Shown here: piece by piece, positions 39,592-43,754 of the stretch
How positions within the stretch are numbered: the first letter of the stretch is position 1
Layout of the letters: every line of letters begins with the position of its first letter
From: an uncultured Pseudomonadales bacterium
Lineage (GTDB): Bacteria > Patescibacteriota > Microgenomatia > UBA1400 > PJMF01
Direction: 5' to 3'
Length of the DNA stretch: 64,000 bases
Assembly (NCBI GenBank): GCA_964570365.1
Contig: CAZMXT010000004.1
Span: 2,792-66,791 of the forward strand
The notes under the pieces: model-generated
Database searches by the model: none
What the model was told of the DNA's origin: nothing
What the model saw: only the letters and a program-made list of their open reading frames with translations
Program-made: the position numbers and the translations under genes

Positions 39592-39644
39592 AGCAGAAAA
39601 GGCATCATGACCTTGACAAGGTTGTAGTCTGAAGAGAGTGAGAG

Positions 39645-39718
39645 TGTCAAGGGGGAGACTCGAACTCCCAACCTCCACGTTATGAGTGTGGCGCTCTAAC
39701 CAGTTGAGCTACCCTGAC
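39645..39718 (-). tRNA. tRNA with CAU anticodon (elongator Met or Ile2-lysidine type; G1-C72 paired)
   Basis: Hand-folded cloverleaf: GTCAGGG/TA/GCTC-AACTGGTTA-GAGC/G/CCACA-CTCATAA-CGTGG/AGGTT/GGGAG-TTCGAGT-CTCCC/CCTTGAC/A. 74 nt, CCA not encoded. Confidence 0.85.
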
Positions 39719-39901
39719 AAAAGGCAAGCGGTTTTCACCGCGAGCACAAATTATACCAAAGGAGGAGCGAAAAGAGTGGATCAAGGGTGGAACTGGGGGT
39801 TGGGGAGATGTGATAAGGAAAATGAGAAGGCAGTCTCAGCCACCGCGGTTTACTGTTTTGTATGCTGACTTTTCCCTGCAAAAATATCACAATACTAGAG
39901 A

Positions 39902-41557
39902 ATGTTTAATTTTGACAACCTCCGTTCACCAAAATCACACAAGTGCCGTTTTTTTACTGGACTAGTTCTTTGCACAGCTCTTACAGTTCTTGTGAGCACG
40001 GGAAGTGTGGTCCAAGCCAGTTCTGGGAGTCTGAAGGCTGATCCTAATTTTGATGCTTCTCGTTTTAGTCCGGAAGCTGCTCTGTGGTATGACCGCTTGG
40101 TCAGGGGAGTTCAAGGTGGCCAATATCCAGACACGGTTGCCTGTAGTAAGTCAGGAGATGTCTATACTTTGGGCCGTTGTGCGGGTATGGGAATACTCTC
40201 ACTCTCTATGGCTACAAGAGCAACGGGTGATCCTCAGTTCATTTCCCAGATAGATATGATGCTAGACAACATGAGAGCTGACTTAAAAGATGTGTGGCGA
40301 CCAGAGTGTGAGAAGTTTAGCCGTTGCGAGTCGATGCAGGATGGGTATCTCAATTTTACTTCGACTATAAATCCAAATGACGCCAATTTCTATGGTAATG
40401 ACACACTAGAGTTAGATGAGATACTCAGCCACGCCGCAATCACGGCAGGGGTTCGGGCTCTCAAAGAAAATGTAGATCTCCATCCTGAGTATCAAGAAAA
40501 GGTGAGTTTTTGGACTGATTACTTAGAGAATCACTTTCTCAAAAAATGGAAAACAAGATCAAGAATTCCTATTAATGATGAGACTCAATACAGTCGAATT
40601 TTGGGAAAGAGCTTAACGCATCCTTATATCAGTTTTGTCTCCTTTTATAACGATCTTTACTTTTTAACCGGGAAGCAAGTCTATCGAGATGAAGCGCTCC
40701 GGCGCGGTCAGATAGTTAAGCAAACTTTGCATGAAACTGTTTTACAGAATGGGACAACTGGCGTAATTTGGTGACATGGAGTGGCAGGAAGTCGGCCCGG
40801 TTACACACTTTGTCAGCCAGTTGAGTACTCAACCTACACCTTGGCGTATCTGTTGAAGTTAAATCAGGAGGGCTTCGATAACTTTAATCAAGATGCTCAG
40901 ATGGAGCAAATTGCAAACACCATTTCCTACCAAGTCTTACCCAACTCATCGCTAGCTACTGGCCTAACGCCAACAGTTTGTGGCACCAATACGTATAATT
41001 TTCCGCCAGAAATTCTCAATGATATGGATGGTTCATCTCAATATACCAAGAGAAAGCCCTACTCAAGTTTATCGAGCTTCGGTGGGTTTATTGGTTTTGC
41101 CCGCTGGGACCGAAGTGGAACCATTGCTCAAGCAGTAGAAGCCAGTTTTAGAGCTGGAAGCTCTAATTGGGAACGCCCAGGTTCAGATTTACTAAACCCA
41201 ATAGCAGGTGCGTATATGCTAATGGCAATACCGAATACACGAGGTGGAATTTTAGTCAGTCCTAGTCCCACCTTGGTGCCAACTCCGAGCCCTGTGGCTA
41301 GTCCTAGCTCGAGCCCAAGTGTAAGTCCCACGCCATTAGTCAGCCCCACGCCAACACCAGAGATTTCTCCTAGTATTTCTGCATGTGTGGGTGACATTAA
41401 CGACGATCGAAGAGTTGATTTAGCTGACTACTCGTTGCTGTCTGGCTCATTCTTCAGAACCGCCTCAGTTCAGCCCAAGGCAGATCTCAACCAAGATGGG
41501 AGTATTAATATAAGTGACTACTCAATCTTGGTCGACAGATTCTTTAAGCCTTGCTGA
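39902..41557 (+). pseudogene. secreted protein with PT-rich linker and C-terminal dockerin-like domain, interrupted by a single in-frame TGA (40772-40774)
   Basis: Tool ORFs 39902..40774 and 40781..41557 share one frame, separated only by TGG-TGA-CAT. The N-terminus has a signal-peptide-like segment. The C-terminus carries two Ca-binding dockerin repeats (GDINDDRRVDLADYSLL / DLNQDGSINISDYSIL). Confidence 0.6.
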
Positions 41558-41614
41558 TCTTGCTACATTTCATGCTTGGTCTCAACAATTTAACGCAACA
41601 GGTAAGATACCTGA

Positions 41615-41752
41615 AGGCAAAGAACATACAAACGAATACGTGAGTGGGAGCGGGAGGAAATTAGCCTTTGGATAGCCCGTGGTAAATCGTTTCGGGCGAT
41701 AGCCCGAAACCTAAATAGATCTCCCAGAACAATCAGCAGAGAGATTCATTGA
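41615..41752 (+). mobile_element. IS30-family transposase N-terminal HTH fragment (remnant, no start codon)
   Basis: The 45-codon open frame reads ...EEISLWIARGKSFRAIARNLNRSPRTISREIH*. It matches the IS30 HTH_38 motif (GxSxReIARxLgRspSTISRE) and is truncated by TGA. Confidence 0.55.
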
Positions 41753-41879
41753 GGGATATCTCTGTCGCAAACGTTGGATCACTTCTTCATCTTGGGGTAA
41801 ATCGAGGTGAGTAGCAGCAACTCTTTTCGTAACAGCGTCACAAAGGAGCCATTTATAGATATTTTTCGCAATACTGCTC

Positions 41880-41897
41880 TTATGTTGCGGGACTAGG
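41880..41897. repeat. 18-bp exact direct repeat of the tRNA 3' end (TTATGTTGCGGGACTAGG), distal copy (att-like)
   Basis: Identical to 42017..42034, which lies inside and just beyond the 3' end of the tRNA at 42022..42090. Confidence 0.7.
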
Positions 41898-41985
41898 CCC
41901 TCCGCTTCTGCTTCGGGCATTCCCTCGCTCAGCTCGGTCAGAGTCGTGGCTTCGCCAACAATTTCTATTCAATCACAAAATAAAT

Positions 41986-42012
41986 AAAAAAACTACCATT
42001 TGGTAGTTTTCT
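41986..42012. terminator. bidirectional hairpin terminator (AAAACTACCA-TT-TGGTAGTTTT) between the two repeat copies
   Basis: An A-run, a stem and a T-run visible directly in the sequence. Confidence 0.55.
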
Positions 42013-42016
42013 TTTA

Positions 42017-42034
42017 TTATGTTGCGGGACTAGG
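42017..42034. repeat. 18-bp direct repeat, proximal copy overlapping tRNA 3' end
   Basis: Exact match to 41880..41897. Confidence 0.7.
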
Positions 42035-42090
42035 AGTCGAACCTAGCCTGTGAGATTATGAGCCTCACGTGCACCCTACACTATCCCGCG
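42022..42090 (-). tRNA. tRNA-like gene with CAU anticodon, C1·A72 mismatch (initiator-like) and unusually short D-arm (69 nt)
   Basis: Hand-folded: CGCGGGA/TA/GTG-TAGGGTG-CAC/G/TGAGG-CTCATAA-TCTCA/CAGG/CTAGG-TTCGACT-CCTAG/TCCCGCA/A. The 5' and 3' ends closely resemble E. coli tRNA-fMet (CGCGGGG...CCCCGCAACCA). Confidence 0.7.
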
Positions 42091-42194
42091 CGAGTGTTTG
42101 ATTTTACCACGTTACCAGAGAAAAGTAACCCCTCGACCCTTTGCTTCCCCTTCTTAACACTCTGGTTCAATCAAAAAGTTATCCGCCTAAGTTT

Positions 42195-42632: not shown

Positions 42633-43499
42633 ATGAAAGAAACATTGCTTGAACTACGCACTAAATTTACACAGCATCTTGAAAGTGCGGGTCGTGCTCA
42701 TGCAACTGTGATTGCGTACAGCAAAGATGTAGAGCAGATTATCCAGTTTTTATCTGAAAAAGGAAAGCACTCTTTAGAGGAAATTTCTTCGGAAGATATT
42801 GAAGAGTTTAAAGAATTACTGCGCAAGCAGCGTTATATCGGTAAGTCCATTTCTCGTAAAATTAACTCGGTTAAGTCATTTTTTCGTTTTTTAATTTCTG
42901 AAGGTCTCATTACTGAGAACCCAGCCGAGATCGTGGTGCACCCAAAGTATGATCAATCCCCACCACGAGTACTTTCGAAGTTAGAGTATCGCGCCCTGCG
43001 TGATGCTTGCCGTGCTGATGTCCGCATCCACGCTATCGTGGAAGTTCTGCTGCAGACAGGGATGAGGATTAGTGAGTTAGCAGCCTTGCAAACTCAGGAG
43101 CTAGATCTTGAAAGAAACGTGATCCAAATTAAAGCCCAAAACTCTCGTGATGAGCGAAAAGTTCCCTTAAATACAGCGGCAAAGAATTCTCTAAATGATT
43201 ACCTAAAAGTCCGGCCACGGGCTCGTGAGAAAACTGTTTTCTTAACCAAAACCTGTCGTCCATTTTTAGTTCGTAACATTCGGACTGCGATTGATCGTTA
43301 CTTTAGATTAGCTGGAATTAAAGATGGTAAAGTCAATGACCTTCGCCATACTTTTATTATTGAGCAGCTCAAAGCCGGAACGCCATTAGTCTATGTTTCC
43401 CAATTAGTGGGTCACAAAAGAATTACCACGACTGAAAAATATCTCAAGTTAATTGATGCTCCAGATATGAATCCGAGTGTGCGGATTGAAGAGCTATAA
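42633..43499 (+). CDS. xerC: tyrosine site-specific recombinase, XerC/XerD family
   Basis: 288 aa with an N-terminal core-binding domain and a C-terminal catalytic region (RHTF...LVGHKRITTTEKYLKL) carrying the R..HxxR..Y catalytic residues. Confidence 0.8.
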   Translation: MKETLLELRTKFTQHLESAGRAHATVIAYSKDVEQIIQFLSEKGKHSLEEISSEDIEEFKELLRKQRYIGKSISRKINSVKSFFRFLISEGLITENPAEIVVHPKYDQSPPRVLSKLEYRALRDACRADVRIHAIVEVLLQTGMRISELAALQTQELDLERNVIQIKAQNSRDERKVPLNTAAKNSLNDYLKVRPRAREKTVFLTKTCRPFLVRNIRTAIDRYFRLAGIKDGKVNDLRHTFIIEQLKAGTPLVYVSQLVGHKRITTTEKYLKLIDAPDMNPSVRIEEL

Positions 43500-43513
43500 A
43501 AAATTGGTATACT
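43486..43513 (+). promoter_or_regulatory. candidate sigma70 promoter for trp leader: -35 TTGAAG, 16-bp spacer, extended -10 TGgTATACT
   Basis: -35 at 43486-43491 and -10 at 43508-43513 with TG at 43505-43506. The predicted transcription start is about 43520, at or next to the leader ATG, so the leader mRNA may be leaderless. Confidence 0.45.
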
Positions 43514-43520
43514 TCACACA

Positions 43521-43583
43521 ATGCAAAGTCGCATCATTCTCAGCTCTTGGTGGAGCTCCCTTTCAGAAACGGGAGTCTTTTAG
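43521..43583 (+). CDS. trpL: trp leader peptide (MQSRIILSSWWSSLSETGVF) with tandem Trp codons
   Basis: ATG at 43521. TGG TGG at 43548-43553. Stop TAG at 43581-43583. The Trp codons abut RNA segment 1 of the downstream alternative hairpins. Confidence 0.5.
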   Translation: MQSRIILSSWWSSLSETGVF

Positions 43584-43642
43584 CGTGTAGTAATTATCAC
43601 TGATAAATACAAGTACGAGGCTCCCACAAGGAGTCTTTTTTT
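43553..43642 (+). promoter_or_regulatory. transcription attenuator: alternative hairpins 1:2 (GAGCTCCC/GGGAGTC), 2:3 (GGGAGTC/GGCTCCC) and terminator 3:4 (GGCTCC-CACAA-GGAGTC + T7)
   Basis: Segments at 43553-43560, 43571-43577, 43619-43625 and 43630-43635, followed by TTTTTTT at 43636-43642. The mutually exclusive pairings were checked base by base. Confidence 0.55.
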
Positions 43643-43754
43643 GCTTAAAAAAACTCACTCCGCAGAAAAATATAGAAAAAATTACTAATTAAAGGAAGAT
43701 ATGAATGAACGATTATCAATTTACCATCATCTCTCAATCTCAAAAGGAGTCCAA

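Follow-up and report, generated by a model that had tools for sequence, protein, structure and literature searches.

In genomic islands that occupy transfer RNA (tRNA) genes, the insert is flanked by attL and attR, which are direct repeats of the tRNA 3' end, and integrase-less derivatives of such islands, for example the cis-mobilisable elements of Streptococcus, are mobilised in trans. A related arrangement is found in the window considered here, a 64,000-nucleotide stretch of an uncultured bacterium of the Patescibacteriota (GenBank assembly GCA_964570365.1, contig CAZMXT010000004.1, forward-strand positions 2,792 to 66,791), where the 3' end of an initiator-type tRNA-Met(CAU) gene (tRNA-fMet) occurs a second time in direct orientation behind the gene. 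An initial annotation of the window, made from its letters alone, had taken this duplication for the att-like scar of a decayed or excised element, with an IS30 transposase remnant and an Xer-family recombinase at its sides. Comparison with other genomes indicates that the 119-bp "spacer" between the two copies is a conserved, structured module and not a decayed scar. This module may well be a small non-autonomous mobile insert at a tRNA-fMet hot spot, the two tRNA-end cores being crossover sites for a recombinase provided in trans, and this reading is tentatively favoured in what follows. The element appears to be undescribed: no description was found in the literature, and the phage and plasmid collections hold nothing similar to the module.

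As in tRNA-gene islands, the insert lies between direct repeats of the tRNA 3' end, the tRNA gene is left whole, and genomes cease to be similar at the repeats; partial tRNA copies arrayed with cargo genes, and the lack of a recombinase in cis, further recall the integrase-less derivatives. Unlike in those islands, the insert measures only about 120 bp, is conserved and folded, and has neither a full-length parent nor a cognate integrase among the sequences found, while the distal repeat takes part in base pairing within the element and varies together with the host tRNA. Neither the segment between the repeats nor its edges carry an integrase gene: no such open reading frame (ORF) exists in the 119 bp, and none is present among the neighbouring ORFs of the module loci.

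The repeated 18-mer (TTATGTTGCGGGACTAGG) is exact at 41880-41897 and 42017-42034, both in the sense of the tRNA (minus strand), with no further match in the window even when up to three mismatches are allowed, and two or more matches were seen in none of 100 dinucleotide shuffles. The exact 18-bp duplication announced in the initial annotation is borne out, its sequence statements are all correct, and within the window the 18-mer is not a multi-copy repeat. The proximal copy (42017-42034) spans tRNA positions 61-74 (3' half of the T-stem, 3' strand of the acceptor, A73 and C74) and the 4-nt trailer ATAA, and forms the genuine 3' end of the initiator tRNA gene. The module ends with the distal copy, or tail (41880-41897). 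The two copies bound a 137-bp unit, and both are present, 137 bp apart, in all six long contigs of the same population. The exact Xer protein encoded near the tRNA was found on long contigs of several mat metagenomes, and these contigs are about 100% identical to the window. A decayed second tRNA at the distal copy was rejected as an explanation, as the DNA to the right of this copy is, on inspection, unlike a tRNA body and Rfam calls no second tRNA.

The match between tail and tRNA is not restricted to the window. The last 14 nt of the module copy the resident tRNA, lineage-specific variants included. For example, the T-stem of L135/L144 is CTGGG/CCCAG and its tail carries CCCAG, L118 has the acceptor strand TTCCGC in tRNA and tail alike, and L088 shares A66 between both. 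In a variant locus, L092, the same core with a different inner hairpin lies about 125 nt behind a tRNA-Ser gene, and the tail (CCTACTCCTCCG) equals the 3' end of that tRNA-Ser. The identity of tail and tRNA regularly ends at GCAACA, that is, the tRNA end plus one base, the 18 bp of the window being the longest case.

The family was collected by an exact-word scan of metagenome contigs with the blocks GACCGAGCT and GCGAGGGAATG, separated by one to five variable nucleotides, which returned 118 loci. Most high-GC matches among them are coding or chance matches, and an extended motif is common to about 30 low-GC loci; with nhmmer, 29 low-GC loci scored 42-54 bits for the region of the invariant box. 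The order of tRNA-fMet gene, terminator, module and tail, all on the same strand, is shared by about ten distinct lineages (the window, L135/L144, L017, L088/L182, L093/L099, L106, L118, L123, L143, L178/L194 and L190), with a gap of 62-89 nt between tRNA and core. Outside the pair formed by the window and L135, the modules of the carriers are 62-86% identical to one another. Window positions 41882-41993 align with positions 819-938 of L017 at 77.5% identity (E = 3e-18), other intergenic DNA of these two genomes being unalignable, and L017 has a copy of CCTAGTCCCGCAAC 134 nt behind its tRNA.

On the tRNA strand, the module (about 120 nt) consists of a terminator hairpin, a variable region of 40-60 nt, the invariant box UCUGACCGAGCU, a spacer of 1-5 nt, GCGAGGGAAUG, a hairpin and the copy of the tRNA 3' end. 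The inserted unit opens, directly after the tRNA, with a terminator-like hairpin that has A and T runs on both sides (41986-42013, scan of both strands) and confirms the bidirectional terminator hairpin noticed between the copies. A hairpin with a T-run stands at this position in every locus of class A, its stem sequence differing per lineage. The 5' region of the module (GUGAUUGAAU..., 41940-41985, minus strand) aligns with L017, L190, L088, L099 and others. The window, L017 and L190 also share a small, optional hairpin (GGCGAAGCC, plus strand 41948-41956 of the window), in place of which L143 has another; elsewhere it is absent. The invariant box, the variable spacer and GCGAGGGAAUG cover 41918-41942 (minus strand), and GCG(A)GGG within them (41922-41928) provides the 5' strand of the outer helix, H1. 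A 69-aa ORF called by gene finders across tail and module (41711-41920, minus strand) has no Pfam match and is most likely a spurious annotation artefact, because the frame is not kept across the 1-5 nt variation of the spacer and third codon positions show no excess of substitutions. Whichever reading holds, annotators should stop calling it. A protein-coding remnant was likewise rejected for the module: the matches in high-GC phage and gut contigs lie in coding sequence (..ALTELSEGM..) at chance frequency, and the 1-5 nt length variation breaks the frame.

The module folds into three helices when nine distinct class A sequences are analysed with RNAalifold on the tRNA-sense strand. H1 pairs GCG(A)GGG with UCCCGC of the tail (41887-41892) and leaves the following AAC unpaired, as in a tRNA; H2 is GUCC/GGAC, and H3 is a 2-bp helix that closes a tetraloop. 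In the window, the inner hairpin (41897-41918, minus strand) has H2 as GCCC/GGGC (GUCC/GGAC in most relatives), H3 as GC/GC, and purine-rich internal loops. Over the 12 pairs of the three helices, 99% of the cells are paired, compared with 30-48% when the partners are slid. Compensatory double changes occur in two of the four H2 pairs and one of the two H3 pairs, a count of three that was reached by 3 of 500 shuffles, and the window itself carries one of them (H2 GCCC/GGGC). H1 reproduces the pairs G2:C71, C3:G70, G4:C69, G5:C68 and G6:C67 of the initiator tRNA, with 1:72 unpaired and A73. The 5' half of a class II tRNA, or a split tRNA, was rejected: the hairpin resembles a D-arm in one register, and the compensatory changes back the other register.

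The genomes compared at species level through GTDB are Patescibacteria/Paceibacteria metagenome-assembled genomes with Xer proteins 60-84% identical. L135/L144 is as distant from the window as other carriers, with a Xer protein 71% identical and flanking DNA 66-70% identical, and yet the 213 bp from tRNA to tail are 97% identical. The 119 non-tRNA bases, the fast-evolving terminator included, are the same except for one extra T in a homopolymer, the substitutions being confined to the tRNA and to the single tail base that mirrors it. Because the module is near-identical at 71% Xer identity while closer relatives (L011-L014 and L018, Xer 80-84%) are without it, the unit has evidently been transferred horizontally, and recently, between distantly related bacteria of the candidate phyla radiation (CPR).

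Where similarity between genomes ends is equally regular. Between the window and L135, it ends at the tail, at GCAACAT (41882), and the DNA beyond is unrelated. L088 and L182 match without a difference over more than 270 nt, from CGCAAC across terminator, module and tail; upstream of CGCAAC there is an intact tRNA in L088, and in L182 unrelated DNA that ends in a diverged copy of the tRNA from anticodon loop to acceptor ("P arm"). L093 and L099 diverge inside the tail, where L093 has 2.85 kb extra with three genes before 99% identity resumes. P arms, which are diverged partial copies of tRNA-fMet, recur downstream of the modules in L093, L099/L131/L193, L106, L178 and L194, and L194 holds two tandem units (P arm, terminator, module, tail) followed by one gene. 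The genes after the modules are of cargo type (peptidase S51, M15/VanY, GNAT and MFS), and none is a recombinase. The cores are, on this comparative evidence, junctions at which between-genome similarity breaks, exactly at tRNA-like repeats. The comparison of occupied and empty sites that the initial annotation had proposed shows a junction at the core for another insert (L088 versus L182); for the module itself, presence or absence is seen between species only.

These junctions bear on the model of the initial annotation, in which the repeats are the inert attL/attR scar of a decayed or excised tyrosine-integrase island, with IS30 and Xer as its remains. An intact tRNA followed by a direct repeat of its 3' end, the real insertion polymorphism at the initiator tRNA within the clade (L088/L182), and the presence of an IS30 fragment and a tyrosine recombinase nearby all speak in its favour. 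A tRNA 3'-end repeat at a recombination site is what the breakpoints of L088/L182 and window/L135 bring out, and this half of the model stands. Its other half, a decayed or excised element, does not, as about ten lineages share the enclosed DNA with its sequence, length and fold conserved, and two distant species have it in identical form. Moreover, a long parent element between tRNA and module was found in none of the 118 metagenome matches, the IS30 fragment occurs only in the window lineage and is not enclosed by the repeats, and the Xer gene stands 5' of the tRNA with its synteny kept in all relatives. An inert scar is, on balance, an improbable account of the locus.

Under the favoured reading, an integrase-less insert bounded by two copies of a 15-18 bp tRNA-end core would be moved or exchanged by a recombinase supplied in trans. 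The cores would be the crossover sites of a site-specific, probably tyrosine, recombinase, and the module itself would be non-autonomous. The outer helix GCG(A)GGG/UCCCGC, together with the unpaired AAC, reproduces the acceptor stem of tRNA-fMet, and the fold may act as RNA or as single-stranded DNA, in recombination or in insulation of the tRNA gene. Excision at the cores would give a 137-bp deletion allele with the tRNA joined to GAGCAGTATT. Neither the IS30 fragment nor the neighbouring Xer-like gene would be required.

Several observations weigh against this reading. No recombinase can be assigned to it, as ORF lists and Pfam scans of the neighbours revealed no integrase, transposase or Cas gene near any module, and the Xer gene lies on the 5' side of the tRNA, outside the repeats, equally in genomes without modules. 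Among the contigs of the same population, all about 100% identical, no excised circle or empty site for the module was seen. The mimicry of the acceptor stem has its own limits, since the 5' strand of H1 was fixed by the search pattern and most H1 changes are C-to-U, which mutation bias alone can produce. The 44-nt core also occurs without a tRNA tail in other CPR-like contigs ("class B"), after terminators, after 5S ribosomal RNA and upstream of promoters, and such occurrences are more in keeping with a general RNA motif, or with a dispersed repeat, than with an att arm. Finally, simple conservative recombination with an attP of donor type should leave one core of that type, whereas the window and L135 each have two cores of host type. 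For the two to agree, the variable base would have to sit within the overlap region, or the cores would have to have been homogenised afterwards; alternatively, the pattern fits a target-site duplication.

In the last case, the repeats would have been made by the staggered-cut insertion of a 119-121 bp unit, by casposase-like or other transposition, and would not be crossover cores. Casposons reportedly make 14-15 bp duplications at tRNA 3' ends (Beguin and colleagues, 2016), and the direct duplication that flanks the insert here, at the 3' end of a tRNA, resembles the roughly 15 bp of casposon insertions. The host tRNA variant carried by both copies in each lineage and the shared length of 15-18 bp at the tRNA 3' end would be explained at once. 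The unit, however, has no terminal inverted repeats (no inverted repeat joins its ends), neither Cas1 nor PolB accompanies the 120-bp insert, and no Cas1 casposase gene or transposase was found near the module loci. The left end, formed by the terminator, is not conserved between lineages, and the junctions of L088/L182 and L093/L099 look like exchange at the core rather than fresh duplications. It is therefore doubtful, to a high degree, that target-site duplication produced the repeats.

The conserved fold and the class B occurrences raise another explanation, less probable than the mobile insert and still to be taken seriously, in which the module is mainly a small RNA gene or a cis-acting RNA tied to tRNA-fMet. 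Its acceptor-stem mimic (G2:C71, C3:G70, G4:C69, unpaired 1:72, A73) would be read through or processed from the tRNA transcript, the 18-mer would be duplicated since the RNA must resemble the tRNA end, and the unit would have spread by ordinary homologous exchange anchored on the tRNA. Such a role would account for the compensatory changes of the three-helix fold, in which the variation of H1 fits only G.U pairs on the tRNA-sense strand, for the strictly conserved single-stranded box 5' of the fold, and for a strand and position that are alike in all lineages. The tail keeps the GCAACA context of the tRNA gene, so that the same 3' processing and CCA addition could act on it; in L092, the tail ends ...CCGCCA, which differs from the trailer of the tRNA-Ser gene and still pairs with GCG. 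The presence of the core motif in non-tRNA contexts, beside promoters and terminators, points the same way. Against an RNA stands the terminator hairpin with its T-run, which parts the module from the tRNA in every locus with no conserved promoter between them, as does a sporadic distribution, the module being absent from eight of the ten related species loci. Single-sequence minimum free energy z-scores are unremarkable (-0.9 and -0.1), and an RNA role alone leaves unexplained why similarity breaks exactly at the tail. No Rfam family emerges even at E <=10: with Rfam 15, the region 41560-42120 gave, apart from the tRNA, only six weak matches (E 0.2-9, 16-23 bits, compared with gathering scores of 50-98), and in 16 related loci nothing at the Rfam gathering score overlaps the motif. 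Hammerhead and other small ribozymes, T-box, signal recognition particle RNA, RNase P and transfer-messenger RNA were rejected, as their consensus cores do not fit and Rfam finds nothing. The RNA reading and that of a mobile insert are not mutually exclusive.

The core has further settings. In L089, L091, L162 and L191, a second conserved element of about 65 nt stands before different genes (tRNA-Asp, glycyl-tRNA synthetase); it is a hairpin that overlaps a perfect TTGCAA-17-TATAAT promoter, and the 44-nt core is inserted in it at differing positions. Because of these varying positions, the sequences suggest that the core may itself be a small mobile or modular unit. In L164 (3193-3455), a 40-bp perfect inverted repeat surrounds a 180-nt strongly structured segment (fold z-score -12) with both core words. 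This segment looks like a miniature inverted-repeat transposable element, which may or may not be related to the module family. L112 has, about 150 nt downstream from its core motif, a tRNA-like sequence that neither ARAGORN nor Rfam calls; its D-arm (GTGTAGGTGCAC) is of the same short kind, its acceptor and T-arm are good, and its anticodon loop is too large. A viral or plasmid origin was rejected, the scans of viral contigs for module, tail and P arm returning only chance matches or full tRNAs.

In type V-K CRISPR-associated transposons, a short delocalized CRISPR RNA (crRNA) homes to tRNA genes (PMC11656645). The module resembles such a crRNA in that a tRNA-matching segment sits on a conserved hairpin just downstream of the tRNA gene that would be targeted, and a crRNA-like repeat-plus-guide RNA, whose 3' segment of 14-18 nt targets the tRNA-fMet gene, was accordingly considered. 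The conserved hairpin handle followed by a variable 3' segment suits this idea, as do L194, L097 and L186, which have two handle copies 15-16 nt apart. Nevertheless, no cas12k, tnsB/C, tniQ, TnpB or IscB gene is present in any locus, and ORF lists and Pfam scans of the neighbours gave no mark of a CRISPR-associated transposon (cas12k or Cascade, tnsB/tnsC/tniQ), the Cas12k and Tn7 genes included. The supposed guide is in tRNA sense and pairs within the module, with GCGAGGG, and "spacer 1" of L194 resembles a tRNA end in decay more than it does another target. A guide RNA is, of all the explanations, the one given least credence. The analogies with guide RNAs and casposons fail because effector genes and inverted repeats are missing.

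A further parallel to the favoured mobile insert may be sought in integron attC sites and in the folded attP of the CTX-phage type, used by integrative mobile elements exploiting Xer (IMEX) through the host XerCD. Shared features are integrase-less cargo cassettes, a conserved imperfect hairpin with a bulged base as a candidate site, and a Xer-family recombinase encoded nearby, and the hairpin would rebuild a duplex that resembles the target tRNA end. Unlike attC and attP, the module lacks RYYYAAC/GTTRRRY boxes, and its repeats are direct instead of inverted. By this analogy, the initiator tRNA 3' end of these Paceibacteria could be the entry site of an integrase-less cassette system, the module being a recombination or insulation site whose tRNA-fMet acceptor-stem mimic, as RNA or single-stranded DNA, is recognised in trans by a host recombinase, possibly the always adjacent Xer-like enzyme; such a system is an unlikely extension. 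The GC skew is positive on both sides with no change of sign at the locus, so that this is not a dif or terminus region. No dif site, and no 28-bp dyad, was identified here, and a dif/IMEX site was rejected on the skew and the missing dyad.

The recombinase in question (288 aa, 42633-43499) has Phage_integrase and SAM-like domains, and its best NCBIfam matches are XerD/XerC at about 163 bits, compared with equivalog cut-offs of about 330. It belongs to a gene block (DivIC, Xer, TrpRS, a tRNA-binding protein and FtsH) whose order is kept in relatives with and without the repeat, and because of this order the Xer gene counts as a core gene of the neighbourhood, not as cargo. The initial annotation was right about the gene, whose domains are present, and not about its membership of the element, from which synteny and its position on the 5' side of the tRNA separate it. 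As the only tyrosine recombinase in view, it is a candidate for acting on the repeats, a link that its position does not give.

A full IS30 element encodes a transposase with an N-terminal helix-turn-helix (HTH) and a DDE (rve) domain, and has terminal inverted repeats and a 2-3 bp target duplication. At 41615-41752 (plus strand), only the N-terminal HTH of an IS30-family transposase is found, in 45 codons without start codon or catalytic (DDE) domain (Pfam HTH_38, E = 1.8e-16). The frame has no NCBIfam match, and by tblastn it is 57-76% identical to genes annotated as IS30 family transposase. Its identity as proposed at first therefore stands. The proposed association with the repeat does not, and a link between the two was rejected, as the IS30 region has no counterpart in other module loci. 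The search for a further IS30 copy gave none in the window, and no other module locus has a homologue of the fragment. By all signs it is a remnant and a bystander, not an element; since it lies outside the repeats and no other carrier has a counterpart, it would represent a separate, older event in the cargo region.

The tRNA that precedes the module, an initiator-type tRNA-Met(CAU) of 70 nt (42021-42090, minus strand), is called by ARAGORN and by Rfam (RF00005, 48.7 bits at 42022-42090), in agreement with the tRNA first placed at 42022-42090. It has a C1.A72 mismatch and a short D-arm with a 3-bp stem, and its CCA is not encoded. Bacterial initiator tRNAs are marked by the CAU anticodon, the absence of a 1:72 pair, three G-C pairs in the anticodon stem, and A11:U24. 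CAU and C1.A72 are present in the window, positions 11:24 are U:A and not A:U, and the G-C run of the anticodon stem is partial (GAGG/UCUC), being fuller in L011, L013 and L017 (GGGG/CCCA). The 70-nt form with C1.A72 and a 3-bp D-stem is kept in nine of ten related species loci (Paceibacteria), with compensatory changes among relatives in the T-stem, anticodon stem and D-stem. For these reasons, it is regarded as the normal, functional initiator tRNA of the clade: the features first called unusual are real, and they are standard in this group. A separate, ordinary tRNA-Met of 75 nt with G1:C72 lies near it.

The DNA 3' of the initiator tRNA is different in every related species. Among L011-L020 and the window (39644-42090), the orientation of the initiator tRNA relative to DivIC-Xer flips, and it either adjoins the second tRNA-Met or stands 1.5-6.5 kb away from it with unrelated genes between, so that the locus can be seen as a hot spot of rearrangement. 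In the window, the region between the two tRNA-Met genes (39902-41557) has two lineage-specific genes of the cargo region with no homologue in any related locus: one encodes 290 aa that belong to no family, and the other 258 aa, among them a dockerin domain and a linker rich in Pro, Ser and Thr. Owing to single-base differences, sister contigs have these genes split or fused (255+89 aa, or 516 aa).

Two further observations concern the population of the window. Contigs from Logan, which are k-mer based, stop at 41604/41605 and at 42045/42046, each in two or three independent samples, and the 440 bp between the stops (IS30 fragment, tail, module and 3' part of the tRNA) are missing from the contigs that stop. 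The stops were rejected as evidence of polymorphism: they are probably caused by shared 31-mers, those common to the tRNA ends or IS30 copies of other species being the simpler cause, and a structural variant may lie behind them. Elsewhere, L001/L003/L006/L008 differ from L002/L004/L007 of the same population by an indel of about 172 bp between Xer and TrpB, upstream of trpB (about 43500-43700 of the window); the TrpB call is 413 aa in both forms, and the longer form has an additional 75-aa ORF.

The genomes of CPR bacteria, or Patescibacteria, are tiny, and little is known of how these organisms exchange genes. In the present case, a structured unit of 120 nt has crossed between species at about 70% protein identity. 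Apart from the L092 variant it lands each time behind the initiator tRNA gene, and it marks the start of a variable cargo region without a recombinase of its own. If the cassette system outlined above were true, CPR bacteria would have an integron-like gene-capture platform built on a tRNA mimic. Should the module act as an RNA, it would be a hitherto undescribed initiator-tRNA mimic; should its fold be a recombination site, it would represent a new kind of attachment site, one that mimics a tRNA acceptor stem.

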